DNA of 59,963 nucleotides from an uncultured Bacteroides sp. (GTDB lineage: Bacteria; Bacteroidota; Bacteroidia; Bacteroidales; Muribaculaceae): assembly GCA_964606815.1 (NCBI GenBank), contig CAZSHV010000001.1, positions 9,909-69,871 of the forward strand, given 5' to 3'. The position numbers were made by a program, and so were the translations under genes. The notes below the pieces were generated by a model. It saw only the letters and a program-made list of their open reading frames with translations, was not told the origin of the DNA and did not search any database. Shown here one piece after another: positions 520 through 40,671 of the stretch (positions are counted from its first letter, which is position 1; each line of letters starts with the position of its first letter).

Positions 520-1422
520 ATGGCACAAGAAAACCAAATCACACAGTCACAAGCGACATCCGTACCTCAGAAACCGCAAAGCGTAGGCGAACTGATGCGC
601 TCGCCCGGCGTGACAGCCAAAATCAAAGAGATGCTCGGCAGCGAGAAAGTCGCCGCCGGGTTCATCAGCTCCGTCATCAGCGTCACAAGCGGCAGCAAGC
701 TGCTACGCAAGGCCGACCCGATGACCGTGGTGGGAGCGGCCATGGTGGCCGCCACCCTGCAGCTGCCCGTGGTGCCCACCATAGGCCTGGCCTACATCGT
801 GCCCTACAAGGGGCAGGCGCAGTTCCAGATCGGCTACAAGGGCCTGATAGAGCTGGCCGAGCGCAGCGGGCAGTTCCGCAACATCATCGACGAGGTGGTC
901 TACGAGGGCCAGCTCGTGAGCGGCAACCGCTTCACCGGAGAGTACGTCTTCGACGAGTCGGCCAAGAAGAGCGACAAGGTGATAGGCTACATGGCCCGCT
1001 TCGACCTCGTCAACGGATTCTCCAAGACGATCTACTGGACCAGGGAGCAAATCGAGGAACACGCAAAGAAGTTCTCGCAGGCCTACCGCAGCGGCTACGA
1101 CAGCCCCTGGCGCAGCGACTTCGACTCCATGGCGCGAAAGACTGTGCTCAAGGCCCTCTTCAGCAAGTACGCCCCCAAGAGCATACAGATGCAGACGGCT
1201 ATCAGCTACGACCAGGCCTCCGTGCGAGCCGACAGGGAGACGCTGGCCTCCCCCGAAGCCATCAATATCGACGCCTACGACGTCGAATACATCGACAACC
1301 CACAATCCTCCATCCCATCGGAAGAAACGGCTCAGAACGCTCGTGACGCGGCGACAGAGGCATCCGAGCGGGCGGCCGCGGCCATGGCGCAGGCCACAGG
1401 GGACGCGCAGGCCGGAATTTGA
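520..1422 (+). CDS. recT: RecT-family single-strand annealing recombinase
   Basis: Motifs 'GLAYIVPYKGQAQFQIGYKGLIELAERSG' and 'PWRSDFDSMARKTVLK'. Confidence 0.92.
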   Translation: MAQENQITQSQATSVPQKPQSVGELMRSPGVTAKIKEMLGSEKVAAGFISSVISVTSGSKLLRKADPMTVVGAAMVAATLQLPVVPTIGLAYIVPYKGQAQFQIGYKGLIELAERSGQFRNIIDEVVYEGQLVSGNRFTGEYVFDESAKKSDKVIGYMARFDLVNGFSKTIYWTREQIEEHAKKFSQAYRSGYDSPWRSDFDSMARKTVLKALFSKYAPKSIQMQTAISYDQASVRADRETLASPEAINIDAYDVEYIDNPQSSIPSEETAQNARDAATEASERAAAAMAQATGDAQAGI

Positions 1423-2202: not shown

Positions 2203-2758
2203 CGCGCTTAACTCGGCCCGGACGCGCAGGCGCATTGAGGAGGTCGCCGCTCTATGCGGCGGCCAAGGCCACGGCAAACCCGTGTGGGACCTCGTGCTCG
2301 GATGCGCCGAGGAGGCATACGCCTTGGCCGCCGCGGCAGGCGAGGACGTGAGCCCCGATAGCTGCCGATCCGCGTATTCAGACGCGGTGCGCCGCTACCT
2401 GCTCGGCCGCAGCTCGTTCGCGGCCCCTACCTGGCTCGAGAGCCTGGACGACGCGAGATTCAGCGACTACTACGCCTGCAACATCCTCGGCACACTCGAC
2501 GACGAGCTTGCCGACATGACCATCTGCTGCGCCCGCTGGCTCGCCGCCGAGGCAAGACGATCAGACCGCGCCGGCGGTCTTGACAAAGACAGCGCGGCCG
2601 CGCTGGGACGCTGCGTCGACGACATAGCTCGGAGGGTGAGCGGCCTCGAAGACAGAGTGCTGATGTACCACCGCGTGCGCCAGCTGGCAGCCCATGTGCG
2701 CATGAAGACGCGCTACAACCGGCTGCATCCCGACCACGCATACGCCCAGCTGCCATGA
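2192..2758 (+). CDS. Hypothetical phage protein
   Basis: Overlaps the upstream ORF; ATGA-coupled to the YqaJ gene. Confidence 0.6.
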   Translation: MENDALNSARTRRRIEEVAALCGGQGHGKPVWDLVLGCAEEAYALAAAAGEDVSPDSCRSAYSDAVRRYLLGRSSFAAPTWLESLDDARFSDYYACNILGTLDDELADMTICCARWLAAEARRSDRAGGLDKDSAAALGRCVDDIARRVSGLEDRVLMYHRVRQLAAHVRMKTRYNRLHPDHAYAQLP

Positions 2759-3702
2759 CACGCACCAGACTGACGTTCAAGGACCGCGACCAATGGCTCG
2801 CGGCGCGCAGGGAGGGCATCGGAGCCTCCGAGGTGGCCACCATCGTGGGGCTCAACCCCTGGGAGACCCCCTACCAGCTGTGGAGGCGCAAGGTCGGCCT
2901 GGACGAGGCCAAACCCATGAGCGCGGCCATGGCGGCCGGCCACATCCTCGAGGACGGCGTGGCCCGCTACTGGGCCGAGGCCACCGGAAGGCAGATAATC
3001 CAGTCAAGCAGAAGCGACTTCATGTTCGTAGACCCCGAGAAGCCATTCCTGCGCGTGAGCCCCGACCGCACTTACTGGCTGGAGGGCGAGCCCCGCAACG
3101 ACGACAACAAGGGCATCCTCGAGTGCAAGACCACCCGCATGGTCGTAGACCCGGCTGACCTGCCAAAGCACTGGTTCGCCCAGGTGCAGATGAACCTCGG
3201 CGTGGCGGGCTACACCAGCGGCAGCCTGGCGTGGCTCTCGGCGGCGGGGGGCTTCGACTTCGGCTACCAGGACATCAAGCTCGTGCCCGACTTCTTCGGC
3301 TGGCTGGCCGAGGAGACCGAGCGGTTCTGGACGGACTGCGTGCAAGGCGGGGCCGAGCCCAGCGCGGAGAGCGTCAAGGACGTGCTGCTGAAATACGCCG
3401 TCCACGCCCCCGGCAAGGTGGTGGAGGCCGACGAGGATCTGCTGAAGCTCTGCGGCGACATCAAGGCCGTGCGGGCGGAGATGGACGCCCTCGCTGCCCG
3501 CAAGGAAGAGCTGGAGGCGAGGCTGAAGACGGCCTTCGGCGACGCCGAGGCCATAGCCCGCGGCGGCGAGACCCTGGCCACGTTCAAGGCCCCCAAGGCC
3601 GGGACGAAGTTCGACGCCAAGGCCTTCCAGGCCGAGCACCCCGACCTCGCCGCCCGCTACAGCAAACCCTCGCAAGGAGCCAGGAGGCTGCTGCTGAAAT
3701 GA
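2755..3702 (+). CDS. YqaJ-like viral recombinase / lambda-type exonuclease
   Basis: 'WLAARREGIGASEVATIVGLNPWETPYQLW', 'SPDR...ILECKT', 'QVQ'; usual partner of RecT. Confidence 0.92.
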   Translation: MTRTRLTFKDRDQWLAARREGIGASEVATIVGLNPWETPYQLWRRKVGLDEAKPMSAAMAAGHILEDGVARYWAEATGRQIIQSSRSDFMFVDPEKPFLRVSPDRTYWLEGEPRNDDNKGILECKTTRMVVDPADLPKHWFAQVQMNLGVAGYTSGSLAWLSAAGGFDFGYQDIKLVPDFFGWLAEETERFWTDCVQGGAEPSAESVKDVLLKYAVHAPGKVVEADEDLLKLCGDIKAVRAEMDALAARKEELEARLKTAFGDAEAIARGGETLATFKAPKAGTKFDAKAFQAEHPDLAARYSKPSQGARRLLLK

Positions 3703-8523: not shown

Positions 8524-8925
8524 ATGACTATGAAAACACCAACCAAACACTCAAAATCGCGCGGAAAGGCCGCAAAAACGCCTTCATCGGACTTATTCAC
8601 GGCTCTGTGCAAGTCGGAGCTGCGGGTGGACTGCGTCAAGGAATACCGCTTCCACCCCACTCGCAGATGGCGGTTCGACTACGCCATCCCAGCCCACAAG
8701 ATAGCCGTGGAGGTGGAGGGCGGCGTGTGGACGGGAGGCAGGCACACGTCGCCGCAGGGCTTCCTGAAGGACATGGAGAAGTACAACGCCGCTGCTCTCC
8801 TGGGCTGGCGCCTGTTCCGAGTGACGCCCGAAAGCCAGCTCGCCAACGATACGATTTCCATGCTCCGACAAGCTATTACGGGAGAATATGACAACCAGTA
8901 CGACATTTTCAAGGCAAAATCATGA
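8524..8925 (+). CDS. Phage PD-(D/E)xK endonuclease (Vsr/DUF559-like)
   Basis: 'EYRFHPTRRWRFDYAIPAHKIAVEVEGG...DMEKYNAAALLGW'. Confidence 0.8.
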   Translation: MTMKTPTKHSKSRGKAAKTPSSDLFTALCKSELRVDCVKEYRFHPTRRWRFDYAIPAHKIAVEVEGGVWTGGRHTSPQGFLKDMEKYNAAALLGWRLFRVTPESQLANDTISMLRQAITGEYDNQYDIFKAKS

Positions 8926-8939
8926 TTATATCATAAACA
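8923..8939. promoter_or_regulatory. Palindromic operator copy 1 (TGATTA-N5-TAAACA)
   Basis: 5 bp upstream of the TACCTTTG -7 box at 8945-8952; recurs at 10469, 21331 and 37878. Confidence 0.6.
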
Positions 8940-8956
8940 TTTACTACCTTTGCGCC

Positions 8957-9526
8957 ATGGCAAAAGGCAGCGGATCATTACGAAGCACTAAACCAAGCTC
9001 TAACAGCATAGCGCACAACAGGGGTGTTTTTGATTTTGAAACATCGATGCCCGATGTGCTAATGGGAGAGTCATATTTTTCTGAGTCCAGCGGAGGATTC
9101 GTGTTAGGGATGAAAGGCCACAATTATGATGACATCGAAAGAGAGGCATTTCGGCACATGGCTGACAATGGATTCTTAGTTGTCGCTACTCCCGAAGGCG
9201 GCATGGCGTACATATCCGGAAAGTCAGCAAAGGGCAAGATGCTCTATGCTGACGGACTACTGATGGGGAAAGTTTTCGAGCTTAAATCGCCTTCTCCTCA
9301 ATCGTCCAAAGAAGAAGCACTCGACAATTCGATAAAAAAAGCCTTGAACCACGCGCGTTCCAAGCAGGCAAACGTACCCGTCATCTACGACCGAAACGGC
9401 ATTTACCACAGGGACAACATCGAAAGAGGTCTCGCCGACTACGAAAGCAAGTCCGACGTGCGATTCAGCGCAATTATCGTAATCGACAGGTATGGTCGTG
9501 TATGGGAACACCAACATAACAAGTGA
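8957..9526 (+). CDS. Putative PD-(D/E)xK nuclease, CdiA C-terminal tRNase-like
   Basis: 'ADGLLMGKVFELKS...IKKALNHARSKQANVPVIYD' D-ExK pattern; AT-richer than its neighbours; likely start is ATG 8957 (MAKGSG). Confidence 0.6.
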   Translation: MAKGSGSLRSTKPSSNSIAHNRGVFDFETSMPDVLMGESYFSESSGGFVLGMKGHNYDDIEREAFRHMADNGFLVVATPEGGMAYISGKSAKGKMLYADGLLMGKVFELKSPSPQSSKEEALDNSIKKALNHARSKQANVPVIYDRNGIYHRDNIERGLADYESKSDVRFSAIIVIDRYGRVWEHQHNK

Positions 9527-11104: not shown

Positions 11105-12574
11105 ATGGGAACGCCATCGGTAGACACACTGCGCAAAGAGCTGGGCCTGCGCCGGCAGCTGCTTGAACTTGACGCTCGCCGTCAGTTCAGGCAATTCTTG
11201 CCGTATATGGACCCGACGTACTCGCGCCAGTGGTTTCACCGCCTCATCGCCGACCGCTGCCAGGCCCTGCTCGACGGAGACATCAAGAAGCTGATGGTGT
11301 TCGTGCCCCCGCAGCACGGCAAGAGCCAAATCGTGTCGCGCTCGTTCCCGGCCTTCGCCCTCGGCGTCAACCCCGACCTGAAGATTGTCGGCTGCTCCTA
11401 CGCCGCCACCTTGGCGCAGGGATTCAGCCGCTCCATACAGCGCATCATGGACTCGGAGGAGTACGCTCGCATCTTCCCTGAGACCTTCCTCAACGGCTCG
11501 CGCGGCCGCGGCTCGGCCAGAGGCGTGGCACGCACCGCCGACGAGTTCGAGGTGGTGGGCCACAGGGGCTTTTACCGCTCGGCGGGCGTATGCGGCGGTC
11601 TCACCGGCACGGCGGTGGACATCGGCATCATCGACGACCCTGTGAAGGACGCTCTGGAGGCGCAGTCTGCCACCTACCGAGAGCGTGTGTGGGAATGGTA
11701 CAACTCCGTGTTCATGACCCGACTGCACAACAACTCCCGCCAGCTCTTCATCATGACCCGCTGGCACGAGGACGACCTCGCCGGCCGCATCCTGGCCAAG
11801 GAGGGCGACTGGGAGGTGCTGTGCATCCCAGCCATCCGCGAGAGCCTTGACGACGGCAACGCCGAAGACCCCCGGCAGGTGGGCGAAGCCCTGTGGGAGC
11901 AGCGCCACTCATTGGCTCGCCTGCTTGAAGCGCAAAAACGCTCCGAGCGGGTGTTCGCGGCCCTGTACCAGCAGCATCCCACGCCCGACGGCGGCAACAT
12001 CGTGAAGGCGGCGTGGTTCCGGAGTTGCTCACGCTCGGAGTTCGAGCGGCTGCACAACGGCGAGCCCATCGTCTTCTTCATCGACACGGCCTACACCGAC
12101 AAAACCGCCAACGACCCCACTGGCATCATCGCCACCTGCAAAATCGGCGAAGACCTTTACATCGTCGACGCAGAGAAGGTGCACATGAAGTTCCCCGACC
12201 TCATCCGCCACATCCCCGCATACGTCCGGCGCAACGGGTACACGCCGAAGTCCACGATCCGCATAGAGCCGAAAGCCAACGGCATCTCAGTCATAGACCA
12301 GCTCAAGGAGAACACCGGCCTGAACGTCACCCGCACACCTTCGCCCTGCGACAGCAAGGAGACGCGCCTGAACGCTTCCTCTCCCTGCGTGGAGGGCGGC
12401 CGCGTGGTGCTGGTGGAAGGGGGCTGGAACGACGGCTTCGTCGACGAGGTGTGCGGCTTCCCCGCTGCCACCCACGACGAATACGTGGACGTGCTCTGCT
12501 ATGCCATCGACTATCACCTCACAAGCCCCTTCAAGCCCATAGACAAGAAGCGGCTCGCCAGACTGGTGCATTAA
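11105..12574 (+). CDS. terL: Terminase large subunit
   Basis: Walker A 'PPQHGKS', Walker B 'IIDDPVK', 'MTRWHEDDLAG', nuclease motifs 'DTA' and 'HDEYVD'. Confidence 0.95.
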   Translation: MGTPSVDTLRKELGLRRQLLELDARRQFRQFLPYMDPTYSRQWFHRLIADRCQALLDGDIKKLMVFVPPQHGKSQIVSRSFPAFALGVNPDLKIVGCSYAATLAQGFSRSIQRIMDSEEYARIFPETFLNGSRGRGSARGVARTADEFEVVGHRGFYRSAGVCGGLTGTAVDIGIIDDPVKDALEAQSATYRERVWEWYNSVFMTRLHNNSRQLFIMTRWHEDDLAGRILAKEGDWEVLCIPAIRESLDDGNAEDPRQVGEALWEQRHSLARLLEAQKRSERVFAALYQQHPTPDGGNIVKAAWFRSCSRSEFERLHNGEPIVFFIDTAYTDKTANDPTGIIATCKIGEDLYIVDAEKVHMKFPDLIRHIPAYVRRNGYTPKSTIRIEPKANGISVIDQLKENTGLNVTRTPSPCDSKETRLNASSPCVEGGRVVLVEGGWNDGFVDEVCGFPAATHDEYVDVLCYAIDYHLTSPFKPIDKKRLARLVH

Positions 12575-12610
12575 CCCCTCCAGCAATTCACCTCTCAAAT
12601 CCAACACATA

Positions 12611-14002
12611 ATGCCAATCGAAGACATCCTCAACTCCAACGCCTCGGCGGAGGCCAAGATAGCCGCCCTGAAGGAGAAGACCATAGTCGTGCCCTCATGG
12701 GGCGGCGCTAAGGGCTTAAGGCGCGAGTACGACCCCACGCTCCACCCGGTGATGGACAAGGCTCTGTACCCCGACGTCGCCAACGACGACGGCTCCTACG
12801 AGCCGCAGACGCGCATCACCTACGACCTCCAACGCCTCGCCACAAAGCGAATGACGGAGCTGGCCGTGGGAACGCCCGTCAAGCGCATCTACACCCCGCA
12901 GAACGAGCGTCAGCAAGCCGTGGCGCGATACATCGAGAACATCCTCGAGCGCAACCGCATCAACTCCCTCAACACCGAGCGATGCGCAATGCTCTTCGCG
13001 GGCTGCGAGGTGGTCACGCTGTGGTACGCCACGGAGACGCCCAACCCCCTCTACGGCTTTGACTCTCCGCTGAAGCTGCGCTGCCGCAACTTCTCCCCCA
13101 TGCTCGGCGACGAGCTTTATCCTCTCTTCGACGAGTACGGCGACATGATAGCCCTCTCCATCGGCTACCGCCGCCGCGTGGCAGGGAAGAGCGTGCAGTA
13201 CTTCGACGCTTACACCGCCAACCGGCACATCAAGTGGAGCAACGCCGCGGGCGGGGCCATGGCCGTGGTGGAGGACGAGACGACCACGCTGGGGAAGATT
13301 CCCGCCGTGTATGTGTGGCGACCCACCCCGGTGTGGGAGGACACCTCGAAGATCGTCTACGAGATGGAGTGGGCAATGAGCCGCAACGGCAACTACCTGC
13401 GCAAGAACTCCAAGCCCATCTTCGCCGTCTTCGCCGACGACATCGTGGACTACGGCGGCGAGGGCGACGACAAGGAGGCCAGAGCCATCATGCAATTCCC
13501 CAAAGGCACCTCGGCGCAGTACCTGACGTGGGCGCAGGCCGTGGACAACCTCAAGTTCTACATGGCCGAATTGCGCCAGACCTTCTTCACCCAGCTGCAG
13601 TTGCCCGACTGGTCTTACGAGAGCATGAAGTCGGCCCCCATGTCCGGCGAAAGCCGCAAGCAGCTGTTCATCGACGCCCACCTCAAGGTCAAGGACGAGA
13701 GCGGCCGCCTCATCGAGTGCTTCGACCGAGAGGTGAACGTGATAAAGGCATTCCTCAAAACCATGCTCCCCGCCTCCTTCCACAGCGACATCGACGCCCT
13801 GCCCGTGGAGCACGAGGTGTCGGCATTCGTGGTCTCCGATGAAAAGGACACCATCGTCAATCTAATGACGGCCAACGGCGGCAAGCCCGTCATCTCGCAG
13901 CGGGAGTCTATCGAGGTGCTCGGATGGAGCAAGGACGTGGACAAGACCATGGCCGAAATCCAAGAGCAGGACGTGCAAGACGCCTTCGGCTCATATCAGT
14001 AA
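12611..14002 (+). CDS. Portal protein (SPP1 gp6-like)
   Basis: 463 aa directly after TerL; 'LGKIPAVY', 'MSGES'. Confidence 0.85.
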   Translation: MPIEDILNSNASAEAKIAALKEKTIVVPSWGGAKGLRREYDPTLHPVMDKALYPDVANDDGSYEPQTRITYDLQRLATKRMTELAVGTPVKRIYTPQNERQQAVARYIENILERNRINSLNTERCAMLFAGCEVVTLWYATETPNPLYGFDSPLKLRCRNFSPMLGDELYPLFDEYGDMIALSIGYRRRVAGKSVQYFDAYTANRHIKWSNAAGGAMAVVEDETTTLGKIPAVYVWRPTPVWEDTSKIVYEMEWAMSRNGNYLRKNSKPIFAVFADDIVDYGGEGDDKEARAIMQFPKGTSAQYLTWAQAVDNLKFYMAELRQTFFTQLQLPDWSYESMKSAPMSGESRKQLFIDAHLKVKDESGRLIECFDREVNVIKAFLKTMLPASFHSDIDALPVEHEVSAFVVSDEKDTIVNLMTANGGKPVISQRESIEVLGWSKDVDKTMAEIQEQDVQDAFGSYQ

Positions 14003-14015
14003 AACACGCACAGCT

Positions 14016-14258
14016 ATGCCTAGAGAACGCACACAAGCCAGATTATCCCGGATGGCGCGGCCTGAACGCACCGCGCATGCTCAAACGCGCCGGTGCAGAG
14101 ATTGCATCCATTCCTACGACTGGCACGACCTCTCGCTCGAAGGCCGCCCCATCCTCTGCCGCTGCCTTGTGGACGCCAAGAGCAAGCAGGGGCGTTTCTG
14201 CAAGTTCCTCTCCGACCTCGCCTGCGAGCATTTCGCCTCCCGGTCACTGATCAGATAA
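14016..14258 (+). CDS. Small Cys-rich phage protein
   Basis: CRDCIH...LCRC...ACEHF putative Zn-binding motif between portal and MuF. Confidence 0.6.
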   Translation: MPRERTQARLSRMARPERTAHAQTRRCRDCIHSYDWHDLSLEGRPILCRCLVDAKSKQGRFCKFLSDLACEHFASRSLIR

Positions 14259-14274
14259 GACCACGCCTGCGACC

Positions 14275-16104
14275 ATGTCCAAGCCCAGCAAATACGACCG
14301 ACAGCACCTGCGCAACCTCGCCCGCTACCGCAAGCAGATCGAGGCCATATATGACGCCGCCCTGCATGAGGCAGCGGCCATAGGTGGCCTTGTGCCGTCG
14401 CTGGACGAGGGGAAGCTGTTCTCCTTTGACGACTACCCCATCACCCACGACAGGGTGCGCAGGCTGCTCGGCTCGCTGTGTAAGGAGCTTGAGATGTGCG
14501 TCGTCAACGGCGTGCGCTCGGAGTGGACGCTGGCCAACAACAAGAACGACGCTCTGTGCGACCGCGTCTTCGGCAGCCGCAAGTCGCGGCTCCCCTATGA
14601 GGCCGCTCGCCGATACTACGCCACCAACGCCCCCGCCCTCGAGGCCTTCCTCTCCCGCCAGGAGCAGGGGCTCGGGCTCTCCGACAGGGTGTGGCGGTAC
14701 ACCGACATGTTCCGCCGCGAGATAGAACTCGGCCTTGACCTCGGCATCCGCTCAGGGCACGACGCTCGGCAGATGGCAAGCAGCCTCAAACAGTACCTGC
14801 TGCACCACGACAAGCTCTTTCGCCGCGTCAGGGACGAGCACGGCCAGCTCACGCTCTCCCGAGCCGCCGCCGACTTCCACCCCGGAAGGGGCGTCTACCG
14901 CAGCAGCTATATGAACGCCCTGCGACTGACGGCCACGGAGACGAATATGGCCTACCGCACCGCCGACCACGACCGCTGGCAGCAGCTGGACTTCGTGGTT
15001 GGGCAGGACGTGCGCTGCTCCGACACCAACCACACCCAGCCCGACATCTGCGACACGCTGGCTGGCCGGTACCCCAAGGACTTCGTCTTCACGGGGTGGC
15101 ATCCCTTCTGCCGCTGCTACGTCGTGCCTGTGCTCAAGACCGAGGAAGAGGTTGACGCAGACATGCAACGCATCCTGCGTGGGGAAGACCCGCTGCCGCC
15201 CTCGCAGAGCGAGAACGCCGTGGAGGAGGTACCCGACAACTTCGCCGACTGGGTAAGGGAGAACGAAGAGCGCATCGCAGCCGCAACCGACCGCGGCACC
15301 CTCCCCTACTTCATCAGAGACAACGAGAAGTATATTGGTACGTCGCTGGAAGAACATCAGATACATTCATTTCTCAGCGGAGAGAATGTGCTTCTTACCC
15401 CCACCCACGAGCAAGATGTAAGTTTAATCCAGGATAAACTGTTCCAGCTTCAAAAAGACAATCCCTCGTGGTTCCGCAGAGGATACACTGGAATTGAAAC
15501 GACCTCTTCCCAAACAGGCGGATACATGTCAACGGACAGCAAAGGACGGATTACTATTAACTTCGCAAAGGACGTTAATGGCTTCAATGCCGGCGAGAGC
15601 GTACTCTCGGCATTCAAGAAGCTGAAGGAAGGCAGGGAACTAACAGCTCACGAGGAATATTCTATTGAGATGCTCTGGCACGAGATACTTCACAACAAGA
15701 CTCTCAACACAGTTGTACTGCCAGACATAGATACACATTTAGGCTTCCCTCGCTCTGTGGCTGAAACCATCAATCAACTTGTGGCAAGGCATACGTATCC
15801 CGATTTTCTGAAGAAATTAGGAGGAAAAGCTGTTCACCAAAGCTGGGTGCTTGAATATGGAATAAGTTATAGGGAATATGTTGCAAACATTCGTTCGATT
15901 ATAACAAAAGCAAGAATAACTGAAAGCGATTTTGTTACACGAGCACAAAAGATTCTAATGGAGGACTATTCCCAAATTGACGAACGAATCGAGAAACTGC
16001 TAATCAATCTCTGCTCAAACAAACGAAATAAGGAGAATATTGGTTTTATTTTTAGACGAATAGAACTTGAGGATTTTACCGAATATCTAAAAATCTTGAA
16101 ATAA
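14275..16104 (+). CDS. MuF-like minor head protein with C-terminal HExxH metallopeptidase toxin-like tip
   Basis: Downstream of portal; 'RLTATETNMAY...CDTLAGRYP...WHPFCRC' MuF signature; AT-richer C-terminal domain with 'LWHEILH...AETINQ'. Confidence 0.85.
   Translation: MSKPSKYDRQHLRNLARYRKQIEAIYDAALHEAAAIGGLVPSLDEGKLFSFDDYPITHDRVRRLLGSLCKELEMCVVNGVRSEWTLANNKNDALCDRVFGSRKSRLPYEAARRYYATNAPALEAFLSRQEQGLGLSDRVWRYTDMFRREIELGLDLGIRSGHDARQMASSLKQYLLHHDKLFRRVRDEHGQLTLSRAAADFHPGRGVYRSSYMNALRLTATETNMAYRTADHDRWQQLDFVVGQDVRCSDTNHTQPDICDTLAGRYPKDFVFTGWHPFCRCYVVPVLKTEEEVDADMQRILRGEDPLPPSQSENAVEEVPDNFADWVRENEERIAAATDRGTLPYFIRDNEKYIGTSLEEHQIHSFLSGENVLLTPTHEQDVSLIQDKLFQLQKDNPSWFRRGYTGIETTSSQTGGYMSTDSKGRITINFAKDVNGFNAGESVLSAFKKLKEGRELTAHEEYSIEMLWHEILHNKTLNTVVLPDIDTHLGFPRSVAETINQLVARHTYPDFLKKLGGKAVHQSWVLEYGISYREYVANIRSIITKARITESDFVTRAQKILMEDYSQIDERIEKLLINLCSNKRNKENIGFIFRRIELEDFTEYLKILK
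14963..15335 (+). repeat. MuF homology repeat, copy 1 (inside the full-length gene)
   Basis: Near-identical to 17913-18285 (373 bp), 16426-16732 (307 bp) and 19838-19977 (~140 bp). Confidence 0.95.
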
Positions 16105-16320
16105 ATGGGCAATCAAACTTCTATTCTTCACCTTTGCAAAATAGAAGTTCGCTTTCTCCTTGTCATCTCTCATGCTAAATAATAACCCTAGCATAAAATT
16201 TGCATCATCAGGATTAGCGAAAGGATCAATTCCATGCGCACGCTCCCATTCGAATTGCTCTCTCCCTCCGAAACGATTCAGCTCTTCATCGGTAGGGTTA
16301 TGGTCAAATATCGTTTCCAT
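16087..16320 (-). CDS. Putative immunity protein 1
   Basis: 77 aa, convergent, overlaps the toxin stop by 18 bp; own promoter at 16355-16385. Confidence 0.7.
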   Translation of the reverse strand: METIFDHNPTDEELNRFGGREQFEWERAHGIDPFANPDDANFMLGLLFSMRDDKEKANFYFAKVKNRSLIAHLFQDF

Positions 16321-16354
16321 TAGTAAATTTCTTAAACGTTATCGCTTTTCTATG

Positions 16355-16385
16355 CAAATATAGCAAAAACCGCCGAGGCCGCAAA
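16355..16385 (-). promoter_or_regulatory. Promoter of immunity gene 1
   Basis: Minus strand TTTG-N19-TATATTTG. Confidence 0.8.
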
Positions 16386-16421
16386 ACACTACCCGAATCT
16401 TTCGGAACTTTTCTAAATTAA

Positions 16422-17471
16422 GATTCCGACTTCGACCGCTGGCAGCAGCTGGACTTTGTGGTCGGGCAGGACGTGCGATGCTCCGACACCAACCACGCGC
16501 TGCCCGACATCTGCGACACGCTGGCTGGCCGGTACCCCAAGGACTTCGTCTTCACGGGGTGGCATCCCTTCTGCCGCTGCTACGTCGTGCCTGTGCTCAA
16601 GACAGAGGAGGAGGTTGACGCCGACATGCAGCGCATCCTCCGTGGGGAAGACCCGCTGCCGCCCTCGCAGAGCGAGAACGCCGTGGAGGACGTGCCGGAC
16701 AACTTCACCGACTGGGTGCGGGAGAACGAAGAAAGGATTGAACAAGCAAGCCGATTACCTTATTTCATTCGTGATAATATGCGTTTTGTCCAAGTAGACC
16801 TTGGGGTTGGAATAGGCGCACACAAGCGAGGAAAGGGGGCAATAATGAGGGGCCGAGATGATGATCAATATTTGCAGGAGCTACAAGCTGACAAAATTGC
16901 GAATGCACCTATTTCTCTAACCCCAAATCTGCTTGCAAATGCAGAGGAGGCATGTGAAAAGCTTAAAATTAAACGTATTGATATGACATTTGAAATGGCG
17001 GACGGAAGAACTCCAAACCTTAACAAGTTACGAGATAATTGCCAAACCGCCGTCGTAGTTTACGAAGCACGCCGCAGAGGGATTGACGTTATATCCTTAG
17101 GGCATAGCGAAGAAAAAGACTCGCCATCATACCGATTAGGAGAGGATGGCGCAATTGCCTTCAAGGGGAAAGATGGTTTGCCCCCAAAATTTATGTCATT
17201 AGGAGGGAACAAGGCGCGGATTAAATCAAAAATCGAATCGATAACTACAAACGAGGGCAGATACCATCTCGGCATGGAAAGTGGTGAAGATGGCCACATA
17301 ATTGTAGCGGAAAAAATAAAGGGTCACGATGTCGTCTTTTATGACCCTCAAAGTGGCAAAGCTTGGAGTCTCGGTCATATACTTGAAAGCTACGACAAAT
17401 TCTCCATTCTTAAAGTCAGCAATCTCGAACTTGACACGGACTTCCTTTTAGAAATTTGCGAGGTCCGGTAA
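16422..17471 (+). CDS. Orphan MuF C-terminal cassette 2 with papain-fold (Tox-PL-like) tip; probably untranslated until recombined
   Basis: Frame opens after TAA at 16419-21 with no ATG before the repeat; 'DNCQTAVVVYEARRRG...GHIIVAEK...FYDPQSG'. Confidence 0.8.
   Translation, partial: DSDFDRWQQLDFVVGQDVRCSDTNHALPDICDTLAGRYPKDFVFTGWHPFCRCYVVPVLKTEEEVDADMQRILRGEDPLPPSQSENAVEDVPDNFTDWVRENEERIEQASRLPYFIRDNMRFVQVDLGVGIGAHKRGKGAIMRGRDDDQYLQELQADKIANAPISLTPNLLANAEEACEKLKIKRIDMTFEMADGRTPNLNKLRDNCQTAVVVYEARRRGIDVISLGHSEEKDSPSYRLGEDGAIAFKGKDGLPPKFMSLGGNKARIKSKIESITTNEGRYHLGMESGEDGHIIVAEKIKGHDVVFYDPQSGKAWSLGHILESYDKFSILKVSNLELDTDFLLEICEVR
16426..16732 (+). repeat. MuF homology repeat, copy 2
   Basis: Direct copy of 14963-15269. 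Confidence 0.95.
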
Positions 17472-17723
17472 ATTCAACAACGTTCGCCTATAGTGCAGAA
17501 TTTCATCCAAATCATCGATAACTTGACAGTTGGCATCCGCATCTACCAAAACAAAGATAGGCAGTCCGCACTTGTGACGGGGAGGCACATCGAATCTGAA
17601 ACCAAAAAGAGCCTTTCCTTTTTCTTGCCCCATATATTTTCCAATTAGCGGTGTTGTAGATTTGATGGCCGCTTTAGCGACCCTCTCAAACTGTTTAAGC
17701 TGATCTTGTGTGAAGGTTGACAT
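17448..17723 (-). CDS. Putative immunity protein 2
   Basis: 91 aa, convergent, 24-bp overlap; motif 'YMGQEKG..LF...GLPIFVLV' shared with immunity 3. Confidence 0.75.
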   Translation of the reverse strand: MSTFTQDQLKQFERVAKAAIKSTTPLIGKYMGQEKGKALFGFRFDVPPRHKCGLPIFVLVDADANCQVIDDLDEILHYRRTLLNLPDLANF

Positions 17724-17841
17724 CTGAAAAGGAATTATAACGTCAGAACGGCGGTTTTAAGGCGCACCATGCAGTGAATAGCAGCCGAGCCGAGGGTTTT
17801 ATCGTTTCGGCTCAAGAGAGCGAACACGTGGCGTTTGTGCG

Positions 17842-17872
17842 CAAAGGTAGCAAAAACCGCCGAGGCAGCAAA
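17842..17872 (-). promoter_or_regulatory. Promoter of immunity gene 2
   Basis: Minus strand TTTG-N19-TACCTTTG. Confidence 0.8.
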
Positions 17873-17908
17873 ACACTACCCGAATCTTTCGGAACTTTTC
17901 TAAATTAA

Positions 17909-19402
17909 GATTCCGACCATGACCGCTGGCAGCAGCTGGACTTCGTGGTTGGGCAGGACGTGCGCTGCTCCGACACCAACCACACCCAGCCCGACATCTG
18001 CGACACGCTGGCTGGCCGGTACCCCAAGGACTTCGTCTTCACGGGGTGGCATCCCTTCTGCCGCTGCTACGTCGTGCCTGTGCTCAAGACCGAGGAAGAG
18101 GTTGACGCAGACATGCAACGCATCCTGCGTGGGGAAGACCCGCTGCCGCCCTCGCAGAGCGAGAACGCCGTGGAGGACGTGCCGGACAACTTCGCTGACT
18201 GGGTAAGGGAGAACGAGGAGCGCATCGCAGCCGCCACCGACCGCGGCACTCTGCCATACTTCATCAAAGACAACGAGAAGTATATGGACGTGCACAACTA
18301 CCATCGTGCGACAGAGACGCCCTTGAATGGCATTGCTGAATCTTTTCTGAAGAACTACGAGGAGATTGAAACGGCCCTGGGTATTAATCGCGGCGCACCA
18401 ATGAGCTTTGAAGAAGCTAACGAGATGAGAGCAAACCCGAATTACAAAACAGCCGTCGAGTTCCGGCAGAACTGCTCGGGGACGGTGTTCGCCAATGAAC
18501 TACGCCGCAGAGGCTTTGACGTGGAGGCTTTCGGCAACTCTAAAGAGGAATGGCGAATCACGACCATCCTTTCAAAGCGTCCTGAAATCGCATTCATGGA
18601 CGCTGACGGAAATCCGCCCGTGCCTATCAGAATTAAGACTTCTGGCAATTTAATGCGCGACCTCGGCAGCCAGATGACGGAGCCTGGACGCTACCATCTG
18701 AGGTTCAGGTTCAACAACGACAGTGGCACTGGCCACATCATCACGGCAGAACGCCTTGCTGACGGCACTCTGCGAATCTACGACCCGCAGAACGGAAAAA
18801 TAATCAGGAACTTCAGAGAGTACTCCACGGGCGTCACCAACTCAACCTTCGAGTACTACAGGGTGGACAACCTTCGCATCAATCCGGATGTGGCGCGCGG
18901 AGCGGTCAAACCATCGGGCGTCATGGGAGACGCTCCGAAGATGAAACTCCCGCAAATTGCACATCTCATAGATAGAGGATGGTACGGCGAGTTTGACCCT
19001 AATATAAGTGAGTTAAGGAGACAGACCCTAAACTCCAACTACTTCACAATGTCTGACCAGCCGTTAGCGTACGAAAATTTGCGCACGGGAAAATTGCTTT
19101 TAAAACGTAAACCGCTAAGACGAATAATAAATCATTGTATAAACGCAGATGAAATCGATGCCGTTAAGTTCATCTGGAATAACCCTGGGAGCTTGAGGGA
19201 AATTCGCATTAGCCCTTTGGGCGAAGGAAAAGATTTGACGTTAGAATCTGTGCAGACAAACTTGCGCAATAAGAGGGCACGCGGTGTGGTAGAATACATA
19301 ATCTATGAATTCGAGTATAATGGATTAGTTTGGACCTTGAAAACCGAACATCATAGATACGGGTTTGAACAATTCTACCACCTAAGGAAATCTAATGAAT
19401 AA
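17909..19402 (+). CDS. Orphan MuF C-terminal cassette 3 with papain-fold tip plus a second C-terminal (possibly RNase-like) domain
   Basis: In-frame TAA just upstream, no ATG; 'QNCSGTVFANELRRRG...GHIITAER...IYDPQNG', then ~130 extra aa ending 'EYIIYEFEYNG..WTLKTE....EQFYHL'. Confidence 0.8.
   Translation, partial: DSDHDRWQQLDFVVGQDVRCSDTNHTQPDICDTLAGRYPKDFVFTGWHPFCRCYVVPVLKTEEEVDADMQRILRGEDPLPPSQSENAVEDVPDNFADWVRENEERIAAATDRGTLPYFIKDNEKYMDVHNYHRATETPLNGIAESFLKNYEEIETALGINRGAPMSFEEANEMRANPNYKTAVEFRQNCSGTVFANELRRRGFDVEAFGNSKEEWRITTILSKRPEIAFMDADGNPPVPIRIKTSGNLMRDLGSQMTEPGRYHLRFRFNNDSGTGHIITAERLADGTLRIYDPQNGKIIRNFREYSTGVTNSTFEYYRVDNLRINPDVARGAVKPSGVMGDAPKMKLPQIAHLIDRGWYGEFDPNISELRRQTLNSNYFTMSDQPLAYENLRTGKLLLKRKPLRRIINHCINADEIDAVKFIWNNPGSLREIRISPLGEGKDLTLESVQTNLRNKRARGVVEYIIYEFEYNGLVWTLKTEHHRYGFEQFYHLRKSNE
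17913..18285 (+). repeat. MuF homology repeat, copy 3
   Basis: Direct copy of 14963-15335. Confidence 0.95.
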
Positions 19403-19450
19403 AAAAAGGCTCCCGACACAGCGCTCAAATACGCTATATAGCCGAAAGCC
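19402..19450 (-). terminator. Hairpin with U-tract on the minus strand (terminator and/or small RNA)
   Basis: GGCTTTCGG...ATAGCG-TATTTGAG-CGCTGT...TCGGGAGCC followed by TTTTTT. Confidence 0.7.
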
Positions 19451-19510
19451 GTTGCAAATATGAAAATAATTACTCACATATGCAAATGAGAAAAGTGAAT
19501 TTAATTTATT

Positions 19511-19741
19511 TTAATAAAACTCACGCATTATCACACGCCATTCGTCATCCGTCTTGGTCCATCGCAGTCCGTTGGGGCCTGCAATGATGAATTGCGGGAA
19601 GCCGATAAAGCGGGGAGTGTCGTCCGCAAAGACTGGTTCGAATATACCGCAGCCGTTCATTTCGCCGAGGTACCGTACATCGTCGTATATCGACGATTTC
19701 GCCATTTCCGCCGCTCGATTTTGCGTCTTGCTATCATTCAT
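19511..19741 (-). CDS. Putative immunity protein 3
   Basis: 76 aa, convergent; 'YLGEMNG..IF...GFPQFII' resembles immunity 2. Confidence 0.75.
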   Translation of the reverse strand: MNDSKTQNRAAEMAKSSIYDDVRYLGEMNGCGIFEPVFADDTPRFIGFPQFIIAGPNGLRWTKTDDEWRVIMREFY

Positions 19742-19789
19742 GGGAATTTAATTTTTGTCACTATGCTACTGGCTTTTAAGCCTTTTGCG

Positions 19790-19820
19790 CAAAGGTAGCG
19801 AAATCCGCCGAGGTCGCAAA
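19790..19820 (-). promoter_or_regulatory. Promoter of immunity gene 3
   Basis: Minus strand TTTG-N19-TACCTTTG. Confidence 0.8.
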
Positions 19821-19837
19821 ACTTTTCTTGCTCGATT

Positions 19838-19977
19838 TACGTCGTGCCTGTGCTCAAGACAGAGGAGGAGGTTGACGCCGACATGCAGCGCATCCTCCGT
19901 GGGGAAGACCCGCTGCCGCCCTCGCAGAGCGAGAACGCCGTGGAGGACGTGCCCGATAACTTCGCCGACTGGGTGCG
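19838..19977 (+). repeat. MuF homology repeat, copy 4 (short)
   Basis: Direct copy of ~15118-15257. Confidence 0.92.
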
Positions 19978-20782
19978 AGCAAAATCAGCAAAAATAGAAA
20001 ACGCCAGTAGTTTACCGTTTTTTGTCCGTGACAATAAGGATAAAGTTAATCAAATCATAGATGAAAGCAGATACGACAAATTCATTGGCGAGGGTATAAT
20101 CTCTCACCTGAGGGGCTATCCCATAACAGATGAATTCCTGAGGTTAAAATCTCATGCCGCTGTCGCAGAGCTGCTTCAGCATAATCTCTCATCTTCGGGT
20201 ACTCCTGTGAAGGTGGAAGTCGATGCTCGTCTGATACCATTACGAGTTGCAAAAGCTTATGCTTCTACCTTGTCAGAGTTGAACAGAGAATATCTACTAT
20301 TACAAGCACCCCTTGGGGTGGTCAAGCTTGGATACAAACCTGAAGACCCTTTAGAATTTGGTTGTACTTATTTCAACCATGATACGAGAGAACCCAAAAT
20401 TGTAAGCTTAGTTCAATCGCGTGAAACCCGAAACTCAAAACATGCAATTCGTAGTTCACGATGTGATAAACGGAGAAATGGAATAGCAACGGCCACACAT
20501 GAGTTTGCTCACCTGCTATATTCTGTAAGGACGGCAGATGTCTCTATTTCCCCTTTTGAAACTGCTTTACTGGAAATTTGGAAACAATATGAAAATGATA
20601 TTGCTAAATCCATTGCAACAAACAACATTGATGAAATGGCTACATGGTATCTCGGAAATTATGCAAATAATACTGTTGATGAGTTTATGGCAGAGGCATT
20701 CCAAGAATACAAAAACTGCTCAAACCCAACAAAATACGCTACGGCTGTTGGTCTATTAGTTGACCGATTTTTTAAACGGTAA
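19838..20782 (+). CDS. Orphan MuF C-terminal cassette 4 with zincin metallopeptidase tip
   Basis: No ATG upstream of the repeat; 'ATHEFAHLL...YLGNYANNTVDEFMAEAF'. Confidence 0.8.
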   Translation, partial: YVVPVLKTEEEVDADMQRILRGEDPLPPSQSENAVEDVPDNFADWVRAKSAKIENASSLPFFVRDNKDKVNQIIDESRYDKFIGEGIISHLRGYPITDEFLRLKSHAAVAELLQHNLSSSGTPVKVEVDARLIPLRVAKAYASTLSELNREYLLLQAPLGVVKLGYKPEDPLEFGCTYFNHDTREPKIVSLVQSRETRNSKHAIRSSRCDKRRNGIATATHEFAHLLYSVRTADVSISPFETALLEIWKQYENDIAKSIATNNIDEMATWYLGNYANNTVDEFMAEAFQEYKNCSNPTKYATAVGLLVDRFFKR

Positions 20783-21025
20783 TCATATACGTCCTGTCCT
20801 TTTAAGAAATTCCTCGTACTCTCTAAAAGGGGTCATTACGTCTTCCGCTAAAGCCTTAAAAACGAAATCACCAGTTTGCCCCTCTACGACCGTCAAATGA
20901 GTTGTACACCTAAAGCCATATGGGATCCCGTCTGGGAAAGCTCTGCAACCACAGGTTAATCCGTCATAATTGTTCGTACAATAGTGCTCGCATTTGAAAC
21001 AAGGAGCGTTGTCTCCGTAATACAT
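20783..21025 (-). CDS. Putative immunity protein 4 (Cys-rich)
   Basis: 80 aa, abuts the toxin stop; 'CFKCEH...CRAFPDGIP...H...Q.GDFVF'. Confidence 0.75.
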   Translation of the reverse strand: MYYGDNAPCFKCEHYCTNNYDGLTCGCRAFPDGIPYGFRCTTHLTVVEGQTGDFVFKALAEDVMTPFREYEEFLKRTGRI

Positions 21026-21198
21026 ATCTCAACAAAAAAGGTTGGAAGTTGCAAATTGATTTGCCTCACATAATGGAAGAATATTCTTTTAGAATAATAT
21101 CCTAAAAAAGGCACGGGTAATCGCTCAAAAGCGTTCAGAGCAGGAATCGAGGTATTTATCGTTTCGGCTCAAGAGAGCGAACACGTGGCCTTTGCAGG

Positions 21199-21229
21199 CA
21201 AAGGTAGCAAAAACCGCTGAGGCGGCAAA
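21199..21229 (-). promoter_or_regulatory. Promoter of immunity gene 4
   Basis: Minus strand TTTG-N19-TACCTTTG. Confidence 0.8.
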
Positions 21230-21330
21230 ACGCCCCGCGGAGATTTATGCGAAGAATGCGCACGCATCTGATTTTTTCGGTAGTCACCGACGCTGCGAAC
21301 TACGGCGGTGTGATTTCGAAAAGAATTTTA

Positions 21331-21369
21331 TGATTATATTGTAAACACTAAATATTTTAGCTATCTTTG
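21331..21369 (+). promoter_or_regulatory. Operator copy 3 plus -7 box of the head operon promoter
   Basis: TGATTA-TATTG-TAAACA (21331-47) and TATCTTTG (21362-69). Confidence 0.6.
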
Positions 21370-21401
21370 CGCATGACTAACGAAAACACAATCTTACACA
21401 C

Positions 21402-22100
21402 ATGAAAGCGAAAACTTTAGCAGCCCTGAAAACCAAATTCACGGGGGTTCAGGACGCGATACTTGGCCGGGTCGCTGACAAGCTGATTGCCAACGGCAAG
21501 GTCGCCAAGGAGGCGGACGTCGCAACGGCTGTGGCCGGGGTGGAGTTCCAACAGGTTCTGGAGATGTACGGCGACAGCCGCGCGGGTGAGGCCTCCATCA
21601 CCGCCGTGCGCAACTACGAGACTGCGCACAAGCTCAAGGACGGCAAGCCCCTGCAGGAGGGCGTTGCCAAGCACACCGCCGATCCTGCCGCCAACGCCGC
21701 GGGCGGGGGCGAAGAACCCGAGAAAGCCCCCGCGTGGGCAGAGAAGCTCATTGCCGCCAACAAGGCTCTGACCGACCGACTGAACGCGCTGGAGAAGGGG
21801 CGCACCGCCGAGAGCCGCCGCTCGCGTCTGGAAGCCGTGATAGGCACTCTGCCGGAGCACCTGCGCAAGGCTTACGCCCGCACGCCGCTGGAGGCGCAGA
21901 CCGACGACGAGTTCACCGCCCTGCTGGCCGACGTCACCAACGAGGTGGCCGAAATCGAGAAGCAGAGCCGAGCCGCCGGGGCCGTAACCGGACGTCCGCT
22001 GGGAGCAGGCAAGACGGCGGGCGCGGCGCAGAGCGCGGGCAACACCGCCGAGGCCTCCGACGCGGAGGTGGAAGCCGTGGTGGCCAAGCTCAACATCTAA
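21402..22100 (+). CDS. Putative capsid scaffolding protein
   Basis: Ala-rich coiled coil upstream of the decoration and capsid genes. Confidence 0.65.
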   Translation: MKAKTLAALKTKFTGVQDAILGRVADKLIANGKVAKEADVATAVAGVEFQQVLEMYGDSRAGEASITAVRNYETAHKLKDGKPLQEGVAKHTADPAANAAGGGEEPEKAPAWAEKLIAANKALTDRLNALEKGRTAESRRSRLEAVIGTLPEHLRKAYARTPLEAQTDDEFTALLADVTNEVAEIEKQSRAAGAVTGRPLGAGKTAGAAQSAGNTAEASDAEVEAVVAKLNI

Positions 22101-39293: not shown

Positions 39294-39501
39294 CAGACAA
39301 TCCAAACAAACCTCAAACACAGATTTTCACAACTGGATAAAAGTTCGTATCTTTGTCAAGGCAAACGGAAAAAATGAGTCAAATTTTTACATTTTTGTTG
39401 TTACTTTGTTACTCATCACCCAACCTCACCTGCGCAACATATTAATCAACAACAACATACATCTCTAACACCACATTCTGCGTCGGAAAGTGAATAAGAG
39501 C

Positions 39502-39740: not shown

Positions 39741-40010
39741 TTCCGTATACTTCATTCAAGCGCAAACCATCGCGTGTAAACTCAATGATGTTCATCGAGA
39801 CGGCATCCTCCTTACGACAGGGATTGCCTCAGCGTCATAGAAATACGCGGTGGAGTAAACTCCTCCACTGGGAGTTGGGCCTATATGGCTCTCACAGAAC
39901 TCATCGTCTACCGGAGGAAATGGAGCGACTACTTTAACAGATGGTTCTATCAGCTCTTCCAACGTCATTTCTTTTATCCTTCTTATAAATTCATGATCTA
40001 TTTGAGACAT
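39715..40010 (-). pseudogene. Frameshifted putative immunity gene 5
   Basis: 'GPTPSGGVYSTAYFYDAE' continues as 'GNPCRKEDAVSMNIIEFTRDG...EEQQ*' if one G is restored near 39827; convergent with the toxin remnant. Confidence 0.6.
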
Positions 40011-40123
40011 ATTTTTTATCGATGTTTAAAGCCGCAAGTAGTTGTATGGCTTGGTTATATAATATAATCCTGTCTGCGATTTCTATTGTCAAATGTTAGT
40101 GGTATAGTCGCCTGTTTGGGCAA

Positions 40124-40273
40124 TTTAAGGCCCACCGTGCCGTGAATAGAAGCCGAGCCAAGGGTGTTATCGTTTCGGCTCAAGAGAGCGAACACCTGGC
40201 CTTTGTGCGCAAAGGTAGCAAAAACCGCCGAGGCGGCTAAACGTCACGCGGAGATTTATGCGAAGAATGCGCA
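40124..40273 (-). repeat. Fifth copy of the immunity leader/promoter module
   Basis: Matches 17756-17866 and 21156-21262, including the TACCTTTG box at 40210-40217. Confidence 0.9.
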
Positions 40274-40671
40274 CTTGTCTGCATACTATTGCATTGCAGA
40301 ATCTTACGTCACACAATTCTGGTGATTGTATTATTCATCACCCTCAAACCACCCGCCCGCGCCGGATCCACCATTTTCATGGGAGAATGTTGATCTCCGT
40401 TGTCTCGTCGAGGGATATCGGGGAGCATACTTTTATTACGGACGCAAAGACCGTCCTTACAACCAGACATCCTCTTAAGTCTCTGGCAATCAGTCAGTCG
40501 TCAGAATTATCACCTTAACAATCTAATTATCAAATATATGACTTCTGACAGATGACGGAAGCATCCCCCACCCTCTTTTTTGAAACTTGCCGAGCGGGCT
40601 TTGCGTATTACCCCGATTTTCGCTAATTTTGTACGCATGAATCTAATTTCCTAATCCTTAACGTCTGATAT

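Follow-up and report, generated by a model that had tools for sequence, protein, structure and literature searches.

The MuF toxin family was defined by Jamet 2017 (PMC5576092), with 614 muf genes in 611 phage genomes, almost always one in each, and fusions of MuF to the Tox-PL1 domain were noted by Zhang 2012 (PMC3482391). In Bacteroidales, toxicity and immunity have been shown for Bxa of the Bxa/Apk2 family, and homologues with glutamine-deamidase tips carry small partner open reading frames (ORFs), for which an inhibitor was modelled (Alexei 2024, PMC11699363). Orphan cassettes were defined for the contact-dependent inhibition (CDI) and Rhs systems (Poole 2011, PMC3150448), rAID immunity arrays for Bacteroidales (Ross 2019, 10.1101/471110), and cassette-like ORFs near phage polyvalent proteins were found in Verrucomicrobium (Iyer 2017, PMC5512222). 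Here we describe a MuF gene with a predicted toxin tip, followed by an array of three truncated MuF-tip cassettes, in a stretch of 59,963 nucleotides from an uncultured Bacteroides sp. of the Muribaculaceae (contig CAZSHV010000001.1, in our handles G000:C1:9909-69871, where G000 is the source genome). We refer to the whole stretch as the window; its first 39.5 kb are prophage DNA.

By the features checked in its sequence, the locus belongs to the MuF polymorphic toxin family: the gene lies in the head module downstream of the portal gene, its product has an N-terminal MuF-superfamily domain and a variable C-terminal enzyme with its catalytic residues, a small partner ORF adjoins it, and it is encoded by a temperate phage, whose left end holds an integrase and a repressor-like gene. 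Where the described phages have one muf gene and at most extra immunity genes, this one carries truncated MuF-tip cassettes behind the gene. By analogy the array appears to work like an Rhs/CDI orphan array without being a member of that class. Both have 5'-truncated tip cassettes with a variable length of homology to the main gene and their own immunity genes, both have orphans that are fused to full-length genes elsewhere, and both face the problem of deletion versus duplication in reloading. The carrier here, however, is a phage head protein and not an Rhs or CdiA export substrate (no Rhs/YD or CdiA carrier Pfam domain was found in the MuF carrier or the cassettes), the partners are convergent and have a repeated promoter, and the array lies in the late operon of a RecT-encoding phage. 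The rAID arrays resemble it in their low-GC immunity-gene cassettes, repeated intergenic sequence and occurrence in Bacteroidales, but they have a XerD-type recombinase and immunity genes only, whereas here intact tips are kept and no recombinase adjoins. Shufflons consist of inverted recombination sites with an adjacent invertase, and this possibility was ruled out: all long repeats of the array are direct, and inverted pairs reach at most 29 nt at 81% identity.

No description of MuF orphan arrays was found in the open-access PubMed Central and bioRxiv literature, although the supplements of Jamet 2017 and the neighbourhoods in Fig. S8 of Alexei 2024 could show such loci. The main text of Jamet 2017 mentions neither orphans nor recombination, Alexei 2024 speculates on extra immunity genes only, and PMC12226406 and PMC10083569 do not mention MuF cassettes in their accessible portions. 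A first-pass annotation of this DNA, made from the sequence alone, had held a switching array with opposite-strand immunity genes to be undescribed in a Bacteroidales phage head operon; the claim stands for the orphan array, but Bacteroidales MuF toxins with partner ORFs were already known (PMC11699363), and the array alone is new here.

Genes of the head module run in the order terminase, portal, an 80-amino-acid ORF, the MuF gene, a low-GC stretch of 5.3 kb, putative scaffold and capsid. The MuF gene (14275..16104, plus strand) encodes a full-length MuF-type minor head protein of 609 amino acids ending in tip1, a predicted gluzincin metallopeptidase (HExxH...E). The protein matches PHROG families for head morphogenesis, minor head protein and Bxa at E values of 1e-22 to 1e-96, the best of which (1e-96, head morphogenesis/Bxa family) runs through the N-terminal part; it has no match to Pfam MuF1 or MuF2 at E<=0.1, nor any other Pfam match. 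With the gene as query, BLASTN against the whole window found exactly three more copies of the MuF 3' core (E 1e-56 to 1e-180), namely repeat 2 (16426-16732, 307 bp, 93.8% identity to the MuF gene), repeat 3 (17913-18285, 373 bp, 97.1%) and repeat 4 (19838-19974, 137 bp, 94.2%). Repeat 1, the left homology arm, is the 3' end of the conserved core in the MuF gene itself (14963..15335, plus strand). Each copy is in frame with a different tip in a plus-strand orphan cassette: repeat 2 with a Tox-PL1 papain-fold tip (cassette 2, 16422..17471; PF15644, E 2e-9), repeat 3 with a Tox-PL1 tip and a further C-terminal domain (cassette 3, 17909..19402; PF15644, E 1e-6), and repeat 4 with a metallopeptidase-like tip bearing HEFAH...EFMAE (cassette 4, 19799..20782; PF15887 below cut-off). 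All three frames are stop-free and 5'-truncated, opening at 16422 and 17909 after TAA and at 19799 after TAG.

Behind each of the four tips lies a convergent partner gene on the minus strand: partner 1 (16087..16320, 77 amino acids), partner 2 (17448..17723, 91), partner 3 (19511..19741, 76) and partner 4 (20783..21025, 80). The unit thus consists of MuF repeat, tip, convergent partner and promoter repeat. The MuF core has a GC content of 64.5%, against 40-48% for the tips and 39-51% for the partner genes. The first-pass annotation had reported a full-length MuF gene with an HExxH tip after the portal, three direct copies of its 3' region fused in frame to distinct AT-richer tips, the NC/H/DPQ and HEFAH...EFMAE motifs in tips 2-3 and 4, and a small convergent partner per tip, and all of this was borne out, the motif of tip1 being HEILH. 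No Rfam match was found within 14000-21500, and no tyrosine recombinase ORF lies between portal and scaffold; the phage integrase is about 19 kb upstream. The orphan-tip array is a real, recurrent and uncommon feature.

The junctions of partner 1 with repeat 2, partner 2 with repeat 3 and partner 3 with repeat 4 are also present in a separate metagenome assembly, in three contigs that align to 11957-15245, 15800-18126 and 18057-20409 at 99.3-99.4%; a fourth contig matches a remnant on contig C33 of the source genome, described below. Because these contigs show a few true substitutions relative to the window, the separate assembly is not a copy of the source assembly, and the two may share a source population. 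It breaks inside repeats 1 and 3, which are long and near-identical, and leaves 15246-15799 uncovered, so that the link from repeat 1 to tip1 comes from the source assembly only. In one of its contigs (L223) the MuF body runs into repeat-3-type bases at 15228-15234; as its sequence stands, this would be either a recombinant or a collapse of the repeat.

Tips 2 and 3 are predicted Tox-PL1 papain domains, and tips 1 and 4 are predicted to be HExxH metallopeptidase-like. The residues H, E, H and E of tip1 (HExxH plus a distal Glu) are invariant in 17/17 tip1 sequences, and its model (predicted local distance difference test, pLDDT, 94) is best matched by M1/thermolysin-type gluzincins, with Z 8.5 and root-mean-square deviation (rmsd) 4.2 over 187 aligned residues. 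The PF15644 matches of tips 2 and 3 are above cut-off, their C/H/D triad is invariant in 22 aligned sequences, and the triads of the orphan tips are intact. The tip3 model (pLDDT 88) resembles papain-fold effectors and enzymes (best Z 9.3, rmsd 3.6, 156 aligned), and its last domain has a weak likeness to RelE/BrnT-type RNases (BrnT: Z 5.8, rmsd 2.9, 74 aligned). Tip4 is assigned by motif only. Across relatives, the C-terminal domains on the same MuF core fall into 44 clusters among 208 of 219 tips of at least 30 amino acids, some of the clusters being contig-end fragments; together with the PHROG/Bxa match and the Tox-PL1 domains, this agrees with the polymorphic-toxin identity proposed in the first-pass annotation. 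The best 150 matches to the tip3 papain domain include 51 full-length MuF proteins (best 65%, P0002), 41 partial ones and 58 without a MuF core, and tip4 homologues stand on full-length MuF in 2/5 longer matches (40-41%, including P0156).

The partner genes are probably immunity genes, as had been proposed, and both their co-occurrence with tip types and a complex model of the third pair point to cognate pairing. Partners 2 and 3 belong to one family with a conserved G-x-P, and partner 4 has a CxxCxH motif. When profiles from the four partners were run over 8,545 small ORFs irrespective of position, with duplicates and loci with less than 400 bp downstream left out, homologues stood beside 23/26 Tox-PL1 tips (21/24 minus two copies of this locus), 9/14 tip1-type tips and 1/1 tip4-type tip, versus 3/104 other tips; these counts are not statistical tests, as related loci are not independent. 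Among further Tox-PL1 loci, many of them near-duplicates, 63/79 have a partner-family ORF in either orientation. A partner 4 homologue is convergent to tip4-like genes in L189 and L261. Convergent partners also occur in most single-tip relatives and are not special to the array, and a homologue search with partner 3 as query returned only partner 3 itself. Of the four pairs, the tip3 papain domain and partner 3 gave the one complex model, with an ipSAE of 0.88 against 0.30 for the best control, at a mark reached by 116/157 solved pairs and 2/215 mismatched pairs. In this model the G-x-P loop sits on the catalytic Cys/His, and C48 and H135 are among the contacted residues; at least 96% of contacts recur between runs, and the partner has pLDDT of at least 89. 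The model supports binding of partner 3 to the tip3 papain domain, as a predicted active-site inhibitor.

A second repeat of 40-160 bp escaped the first-pass annotation. It places a minus-strand TAnnTTTG box, which we take to be the Bacteroidetes -7 promoter box, 42-181 bp upstream of every partner gene; nine minus-strand TAnnTTTGC sites occur in the 39.5 kb, and 4/9 stand at that distance before the four partner starts. The copies, all on the minus strand, lie at 16354..16425 (box at 16362 facing partner 1, with a junction common to cassette 3), 17756..17912 (box at 17849 facing partner 2, with the junction), 19783..19837 (box at 19797 facing partner 3, with a junction common to the C33 remnant) and 21148..21231 (box at 21206 facing partner 4). 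The plus-strand spacers ahead of the orphans hold no exact TAnnTTTG box, and a sigma-70 scan stayed near chance level with a model that does not cover Bacteroidales promoters. The first-pass annotation had also stated that the orphan frames have no ATG. This is correct for the start of each frame, where an in-frame GTG lies close by, but further in each repeat holds an in-frame ATG (16626, 18113 and 19883), and cassettes 2 and 3 have an extra ATG at the border of repeat and tip (16779 and 18284), with AT-rich leaders (75% and 65% AT). Because of these codons, the orphans are at most putatively silent.

The promoter repeat has further likenesses. About 16 bases of 17756-17850 are shared with a small minus-strand gene that stands between MuF and scaffold in relatives (L052:6197-6529), a match below BLAST significance, and the repeat may be a worn stub of that gene. 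Just outside attR, the right end of the prophage, at 39792-40274, a further copy (92% over 108-119 bp) faces a 72-amino-acid minus-strand ORF without Pfam match and is possibly the scar of an older prophage's array.

Several observations make it evident from sequence that tips have been exchanged by recombination at the repeat over evolutionary time. Differences between the repeats fall mostly at third codon positions (13/17, 9/10 and 8/8; 30/35 in total), and the copies therefore derive from functional MuF alleles. The repeats are mosaic, in that repeat 3 has the junction of repeat 2 yet equals repeat 1 over 257 bp. Window positions 19545-20035, comprising partner 3, its promoter and repeat 4, are 90% identical over 491 bp to contig C33 of the source genome (G000:C33), where the same block leads to a tip2-like gene, interrupted by an in-frame stop, and not to tip4. 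An orthologous chromosomal locus in two further genomes holds a CdiA_C-like tip in two states: in G059 it follows a 299-bp repeat as an orphan, and in G006 it is fused to the MuF body; the two copies share 95% amino acid identity with a proportion of synonymous differences (pS) of 0.14, similar to the neighbouring gene. The MuF body of G059 bears a tip3-like domain with a partner 3 homologue, and G006 has a tip1/partner 1 pair as an orphan. The closest phages carry an ADP-ribosyltransferase (ART)-like tip (L001-L003, MuF identity 69%) or no tip (L224, 68%).

In the C33 region (G000:C33:15700-19750; L040, L043) lies a second array in a state of decay, next to a transposase and a type III restriction-modification-like locus; head genes are absent. 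It holds three MuF fragments with differing break points, the broken tip2-like gene, homologues of partners 2 and 3, another lone partner-like ORF and a CdiA_C-like remnant. The loci of G059 (L044:9400-13800, on G059:C2) and G006 (L045:3800-10250, on G006:C9) are MuF remnant arrays in the chromosome. Both enclose a tyrosine recombinase, and a 17-bp site occurs once ahead of the recombinase and again behind the cassettes; their layouts would fit a mobile circle that integrates at either a MuF repeat or the 17-bp site.

Our preferred reading, to which we give a probability of roughly 60%, is that the locus is a MuF gene with a predicted toxin tip and three spare tips with likely immunity genes, a stack that ordinary homologous recombination at the repeated MuF 3' core has assembled and rearranged. 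Such a process, C-terminal displacement, was reportedly described by Jackson in 2009. MuF-tip1 would be packed in the head and enter the next cell along with the DNA. Incoming phage or remnant DNA carrying the repeat, a new tip and its partner would recombine into the 3' end of MuF and push the old tip downstream as an orphan. Each partner would be driven by its own minus-strand promoter, leaving the lysogen immune to four tip types while the late genes are off. RecT and YqaJ might occasionally reload an orphan tip onto MuF, either by deletion between repeats, at the cost of the intervening partners, or by exchange between the two repeats that flank each unit, the MuF repeat and the promoter repeat, and no dedicated switch enzyme would be needed. 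Phage recombinases of the RecT/YqaJ class are reported to recombine with prophage remnants through homologies that are short and diverged (PMC3945230). The first-pass annotation had proposed that recombination between repeat 1 and a later repeat rebuilds MuF with a new tip while keeping its immunity gene. Past exchange agrees with this (mosaic repeats, C33, G059/G006), and a plain crossover between repeat 1 and a later repeat does keep the new tip's partner, but it also deletes the intervening partners. A dedicated recombinase, an inversion switch and an integron were rejected for the window, as no recombinase ORF stands by the array and the long repeats are direct.

Several points weigh against the reading just given. 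The clearest swap, that of G059 and G006, comes from a locus that lacks a portal and encodes a tyrosine recombinase of its own. Toxicity is only predicted, and the fold matches behind the prediction are middling (Z 8.5-9.3), with no Foldseek match at E<=0.001 for the tip1 or tip3 model. The first-pass annotation had looked to relatives for tips 2-4 on full-length MuF; related tips are so placed for tip3 (65% at best) and tip4 (40%), but this array's exact tips were not found there. The complex score may owe something to the resemblance of the pair to papain toxin/immunity complexes already solved (9l5u appears in the Foldseek results), and it does not separate cognate from cousin partners. The rarity of arrays (3/124 portal-linked cores and 0/27 GenBank phage records, see below) argues against a strong general advantage.

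A bolder version, which we hold as a tentative and rather unlikely possibility, is that the phage, temperate and of a gut type, keeps a stock of virion-delivered toxins in its head operon and uses its own RecT during lytic growth to reload them onto MuF. A lysogen would then release virions with varied toxins while being immune to all of them, and the chromosomal MuF remnants would be a second, host-held pool of cassettes.

It is also possible, although we consider it unlikely, that the locus is a stack of immunity genes only, in which the tips are passengers of displacement, selection acts on the partner genes alone and orphans are never reloaded in practice. This would account for the rarity of arrays and for the persistence of partners without intact tips, as with the partner 2 homologue of L224, the partner 4 homologue of G000:C13 and the broken tip2-like gene of C33. 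Yet all three orphans are intact and in frame with the repeat, which recent acquisition could also explain, and the G059/G006 pair shows one tip in both states. Frequent switching similar to phase variation, by which every lytic burst would yield virions with mixed tips, we regard as distinctly improbable. Long repeats of 94-97% identity, the RecT/YqaJ pair and the passage of L223 from MuF body into repeat-3-type bases would suit it, but L223 is equally explained by assembly collapse of the 257-bp identical stretch, and the array neither contains nor adjoins a recombinase gene. In addition, homogenisation is not rapid, because the repeats keep 3-6% divergence, and a switch of the deletion type is one-way and loses immunity.

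There is only a slight chance, in our estimate, that internal starts drive expression of the orphans, which would then act as toxin-antitoxin or anti-phage modules in their own right, after the precedent of the Salmonella rhs orphans (Starsta 2020, PMC7043789). The border ATGs at 16779 and 18284 with their AT-rich leaders speak for it, but the spacers before the orphans offer no exact plus-strand box, and convergent partner transcription would oppose transcription of the tips. We are just as doubtful that the tips serve some purpose other than antibacterial toxicity, either as peptidases that process the head or, as has been reported for Bxa, as enzymes directed against the animal host. A processing role was proposed by Zhang 2012 for MuF-fused Tox-PL1 (PMC3482391), Bxa also modifies an epithelial protein (PMC11699363), and in tip3 the second domain comes after the papain domain; however, tips exchange freely among the 44 C-terminal clusters, and a partner predicted to block the active site, needless for a processing enzyme, tracks each peptidase family. 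Misassembly, in which allelic MuF variants of mixed strains were joined as one tandem array, was named by the first-pass annotation as what would refute its reading; it is extremely improbable: the source genome is in 183 contigs with 3% contamination and the separate assembly lacks the stretch between its breaks in repeats 1 and 3, but joining full alleles cannot create the unique junctions of partner, promoter and truncated repeat that recur in the separate assembly, on C33 and in distant phages.

The distribution of arrays was surveyed over 158 distinct MuF cores for which 1.5 kb or more of downstream DNA was available; a portal accompanies 124 of these cores, and four contigs matching the source genome's own loci were set aside. 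This survey replaced an earlier one by whole-core profile (175 loci, 2 positive), which misses short repeats. Orphan copies were found behind 3/124 portal-linked cores (L144, L219 and L299) and 2/34 cores without a portal, a rough rate, since the samples are best matches and short-read assemblies break at such repeats. In L299, a 36%-GC phage with 49% MuF identity, the layout is as here and runs from the portal through MuF-tip and a convergent ORF to two orphans, which follow repeats of 53-69 bp with a common junction, and then the scaffold. The arrangement also recurs in L144 and L219, likewise distant prophages. The contig of L219 measures 5 kb and its repeat shows 100% identity over 191 bp; an artefact of assembly is possible there. 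A further candidate, L058, was rejected on inspection, as it had a 29% protein match, no DNA repeat and no cassette. In a sample of the host family 72/401 genomes have a MuF core; neighbouring copies share a contig in G000, G006, G059, G433, G280 and G468, and in G096 and G450 copies at contig ends share the repeat. All 27 GenBank phage records with a match (27/27) have a single copy, and the exact DNA patterns of both repeats found no relative among viral contigs (one unrelated match).

Remnants of MuF tips and partners seem common on Bacteroidales chromosomes. Among 80 genome loci, twelve consist of a MuF-tip gene that is 5'-truncated and lacks a portal match in the fetched flank, often with a partner (L145, L155, L158, L159, L162, L175, L182, L189, L194, L204, L207 and L211). 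Short MuF genes ending just past the core were seen in L224 (306-1657), L084, L085, L087, L088, L164, L171 and L192; L224 keeps its convergent partner 2 homologue without any tip. Extra partner-3-family genes follow non-cognate tips or stand in pairs in L205, L195 and L159, as orphan immunity without tips. A partner 4 homologue is alone on the source chromosome (G000:C13:5791-6030; 84% amino acid identity, pS 0.51, proportion of nonsynonymous differences, pN, 0.08) near a tRNA-like stretch and a gyrase gene, and its start codon looks lost.

The prophage is complete at 45.8 kb, with ends marked by a 19-bp repeat: attL (G000:C1:3575-3593) at the 3' end of an mnmE-like gene and attR at 39476..39494 on the plus strand. 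The candidate recombinase for the exchanges is a phage RecT annealase (520..1422, plus strand; PF03837, E 3e-48), and a YqaJ-type exonuclease (2755..3702, plus strand; PF09588, E 1.5e-22) is its likely partner. Ahead of the terminase module, a low-GC ORF at 8888-9526 has a CdiA_C-like C-terminal domain (PF18451, below cut-off) and is followed by a DUF4417 gene. In the head module the terminase gene lies at 11105-12574, the portal gene at 12611..14002 on the plus strand (PF05133, E 1e-25), and the capsid gene starts at 22573. The right border of the array is a putative scaffold gene (21402..22100, plus strand), so named from its position ahead of the capsid gene, with a plus-strand TAnnTTTGC box at 21362.

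What temperate phages gain from fusing toxins to MuF is debated, with control of lysis and lysogeny and the killing of competitors as the two proposals (Jamet 2017, PMC5576092). Immunity to former tips is worth keeping only when the toxins reach the cell from outside, and four tip/partner pairs with separate partner promoters therefore suggest that related phages or lysogens are engaged in an arms race. The locus is a ready test set, with four pairs, defined junctions and a natural before/after pair in G059 and G006, and it supplies three unannotated immunity families. If our preferred reading is right, C-terminal displacement would extend from bacterial export systems to a virion protein.

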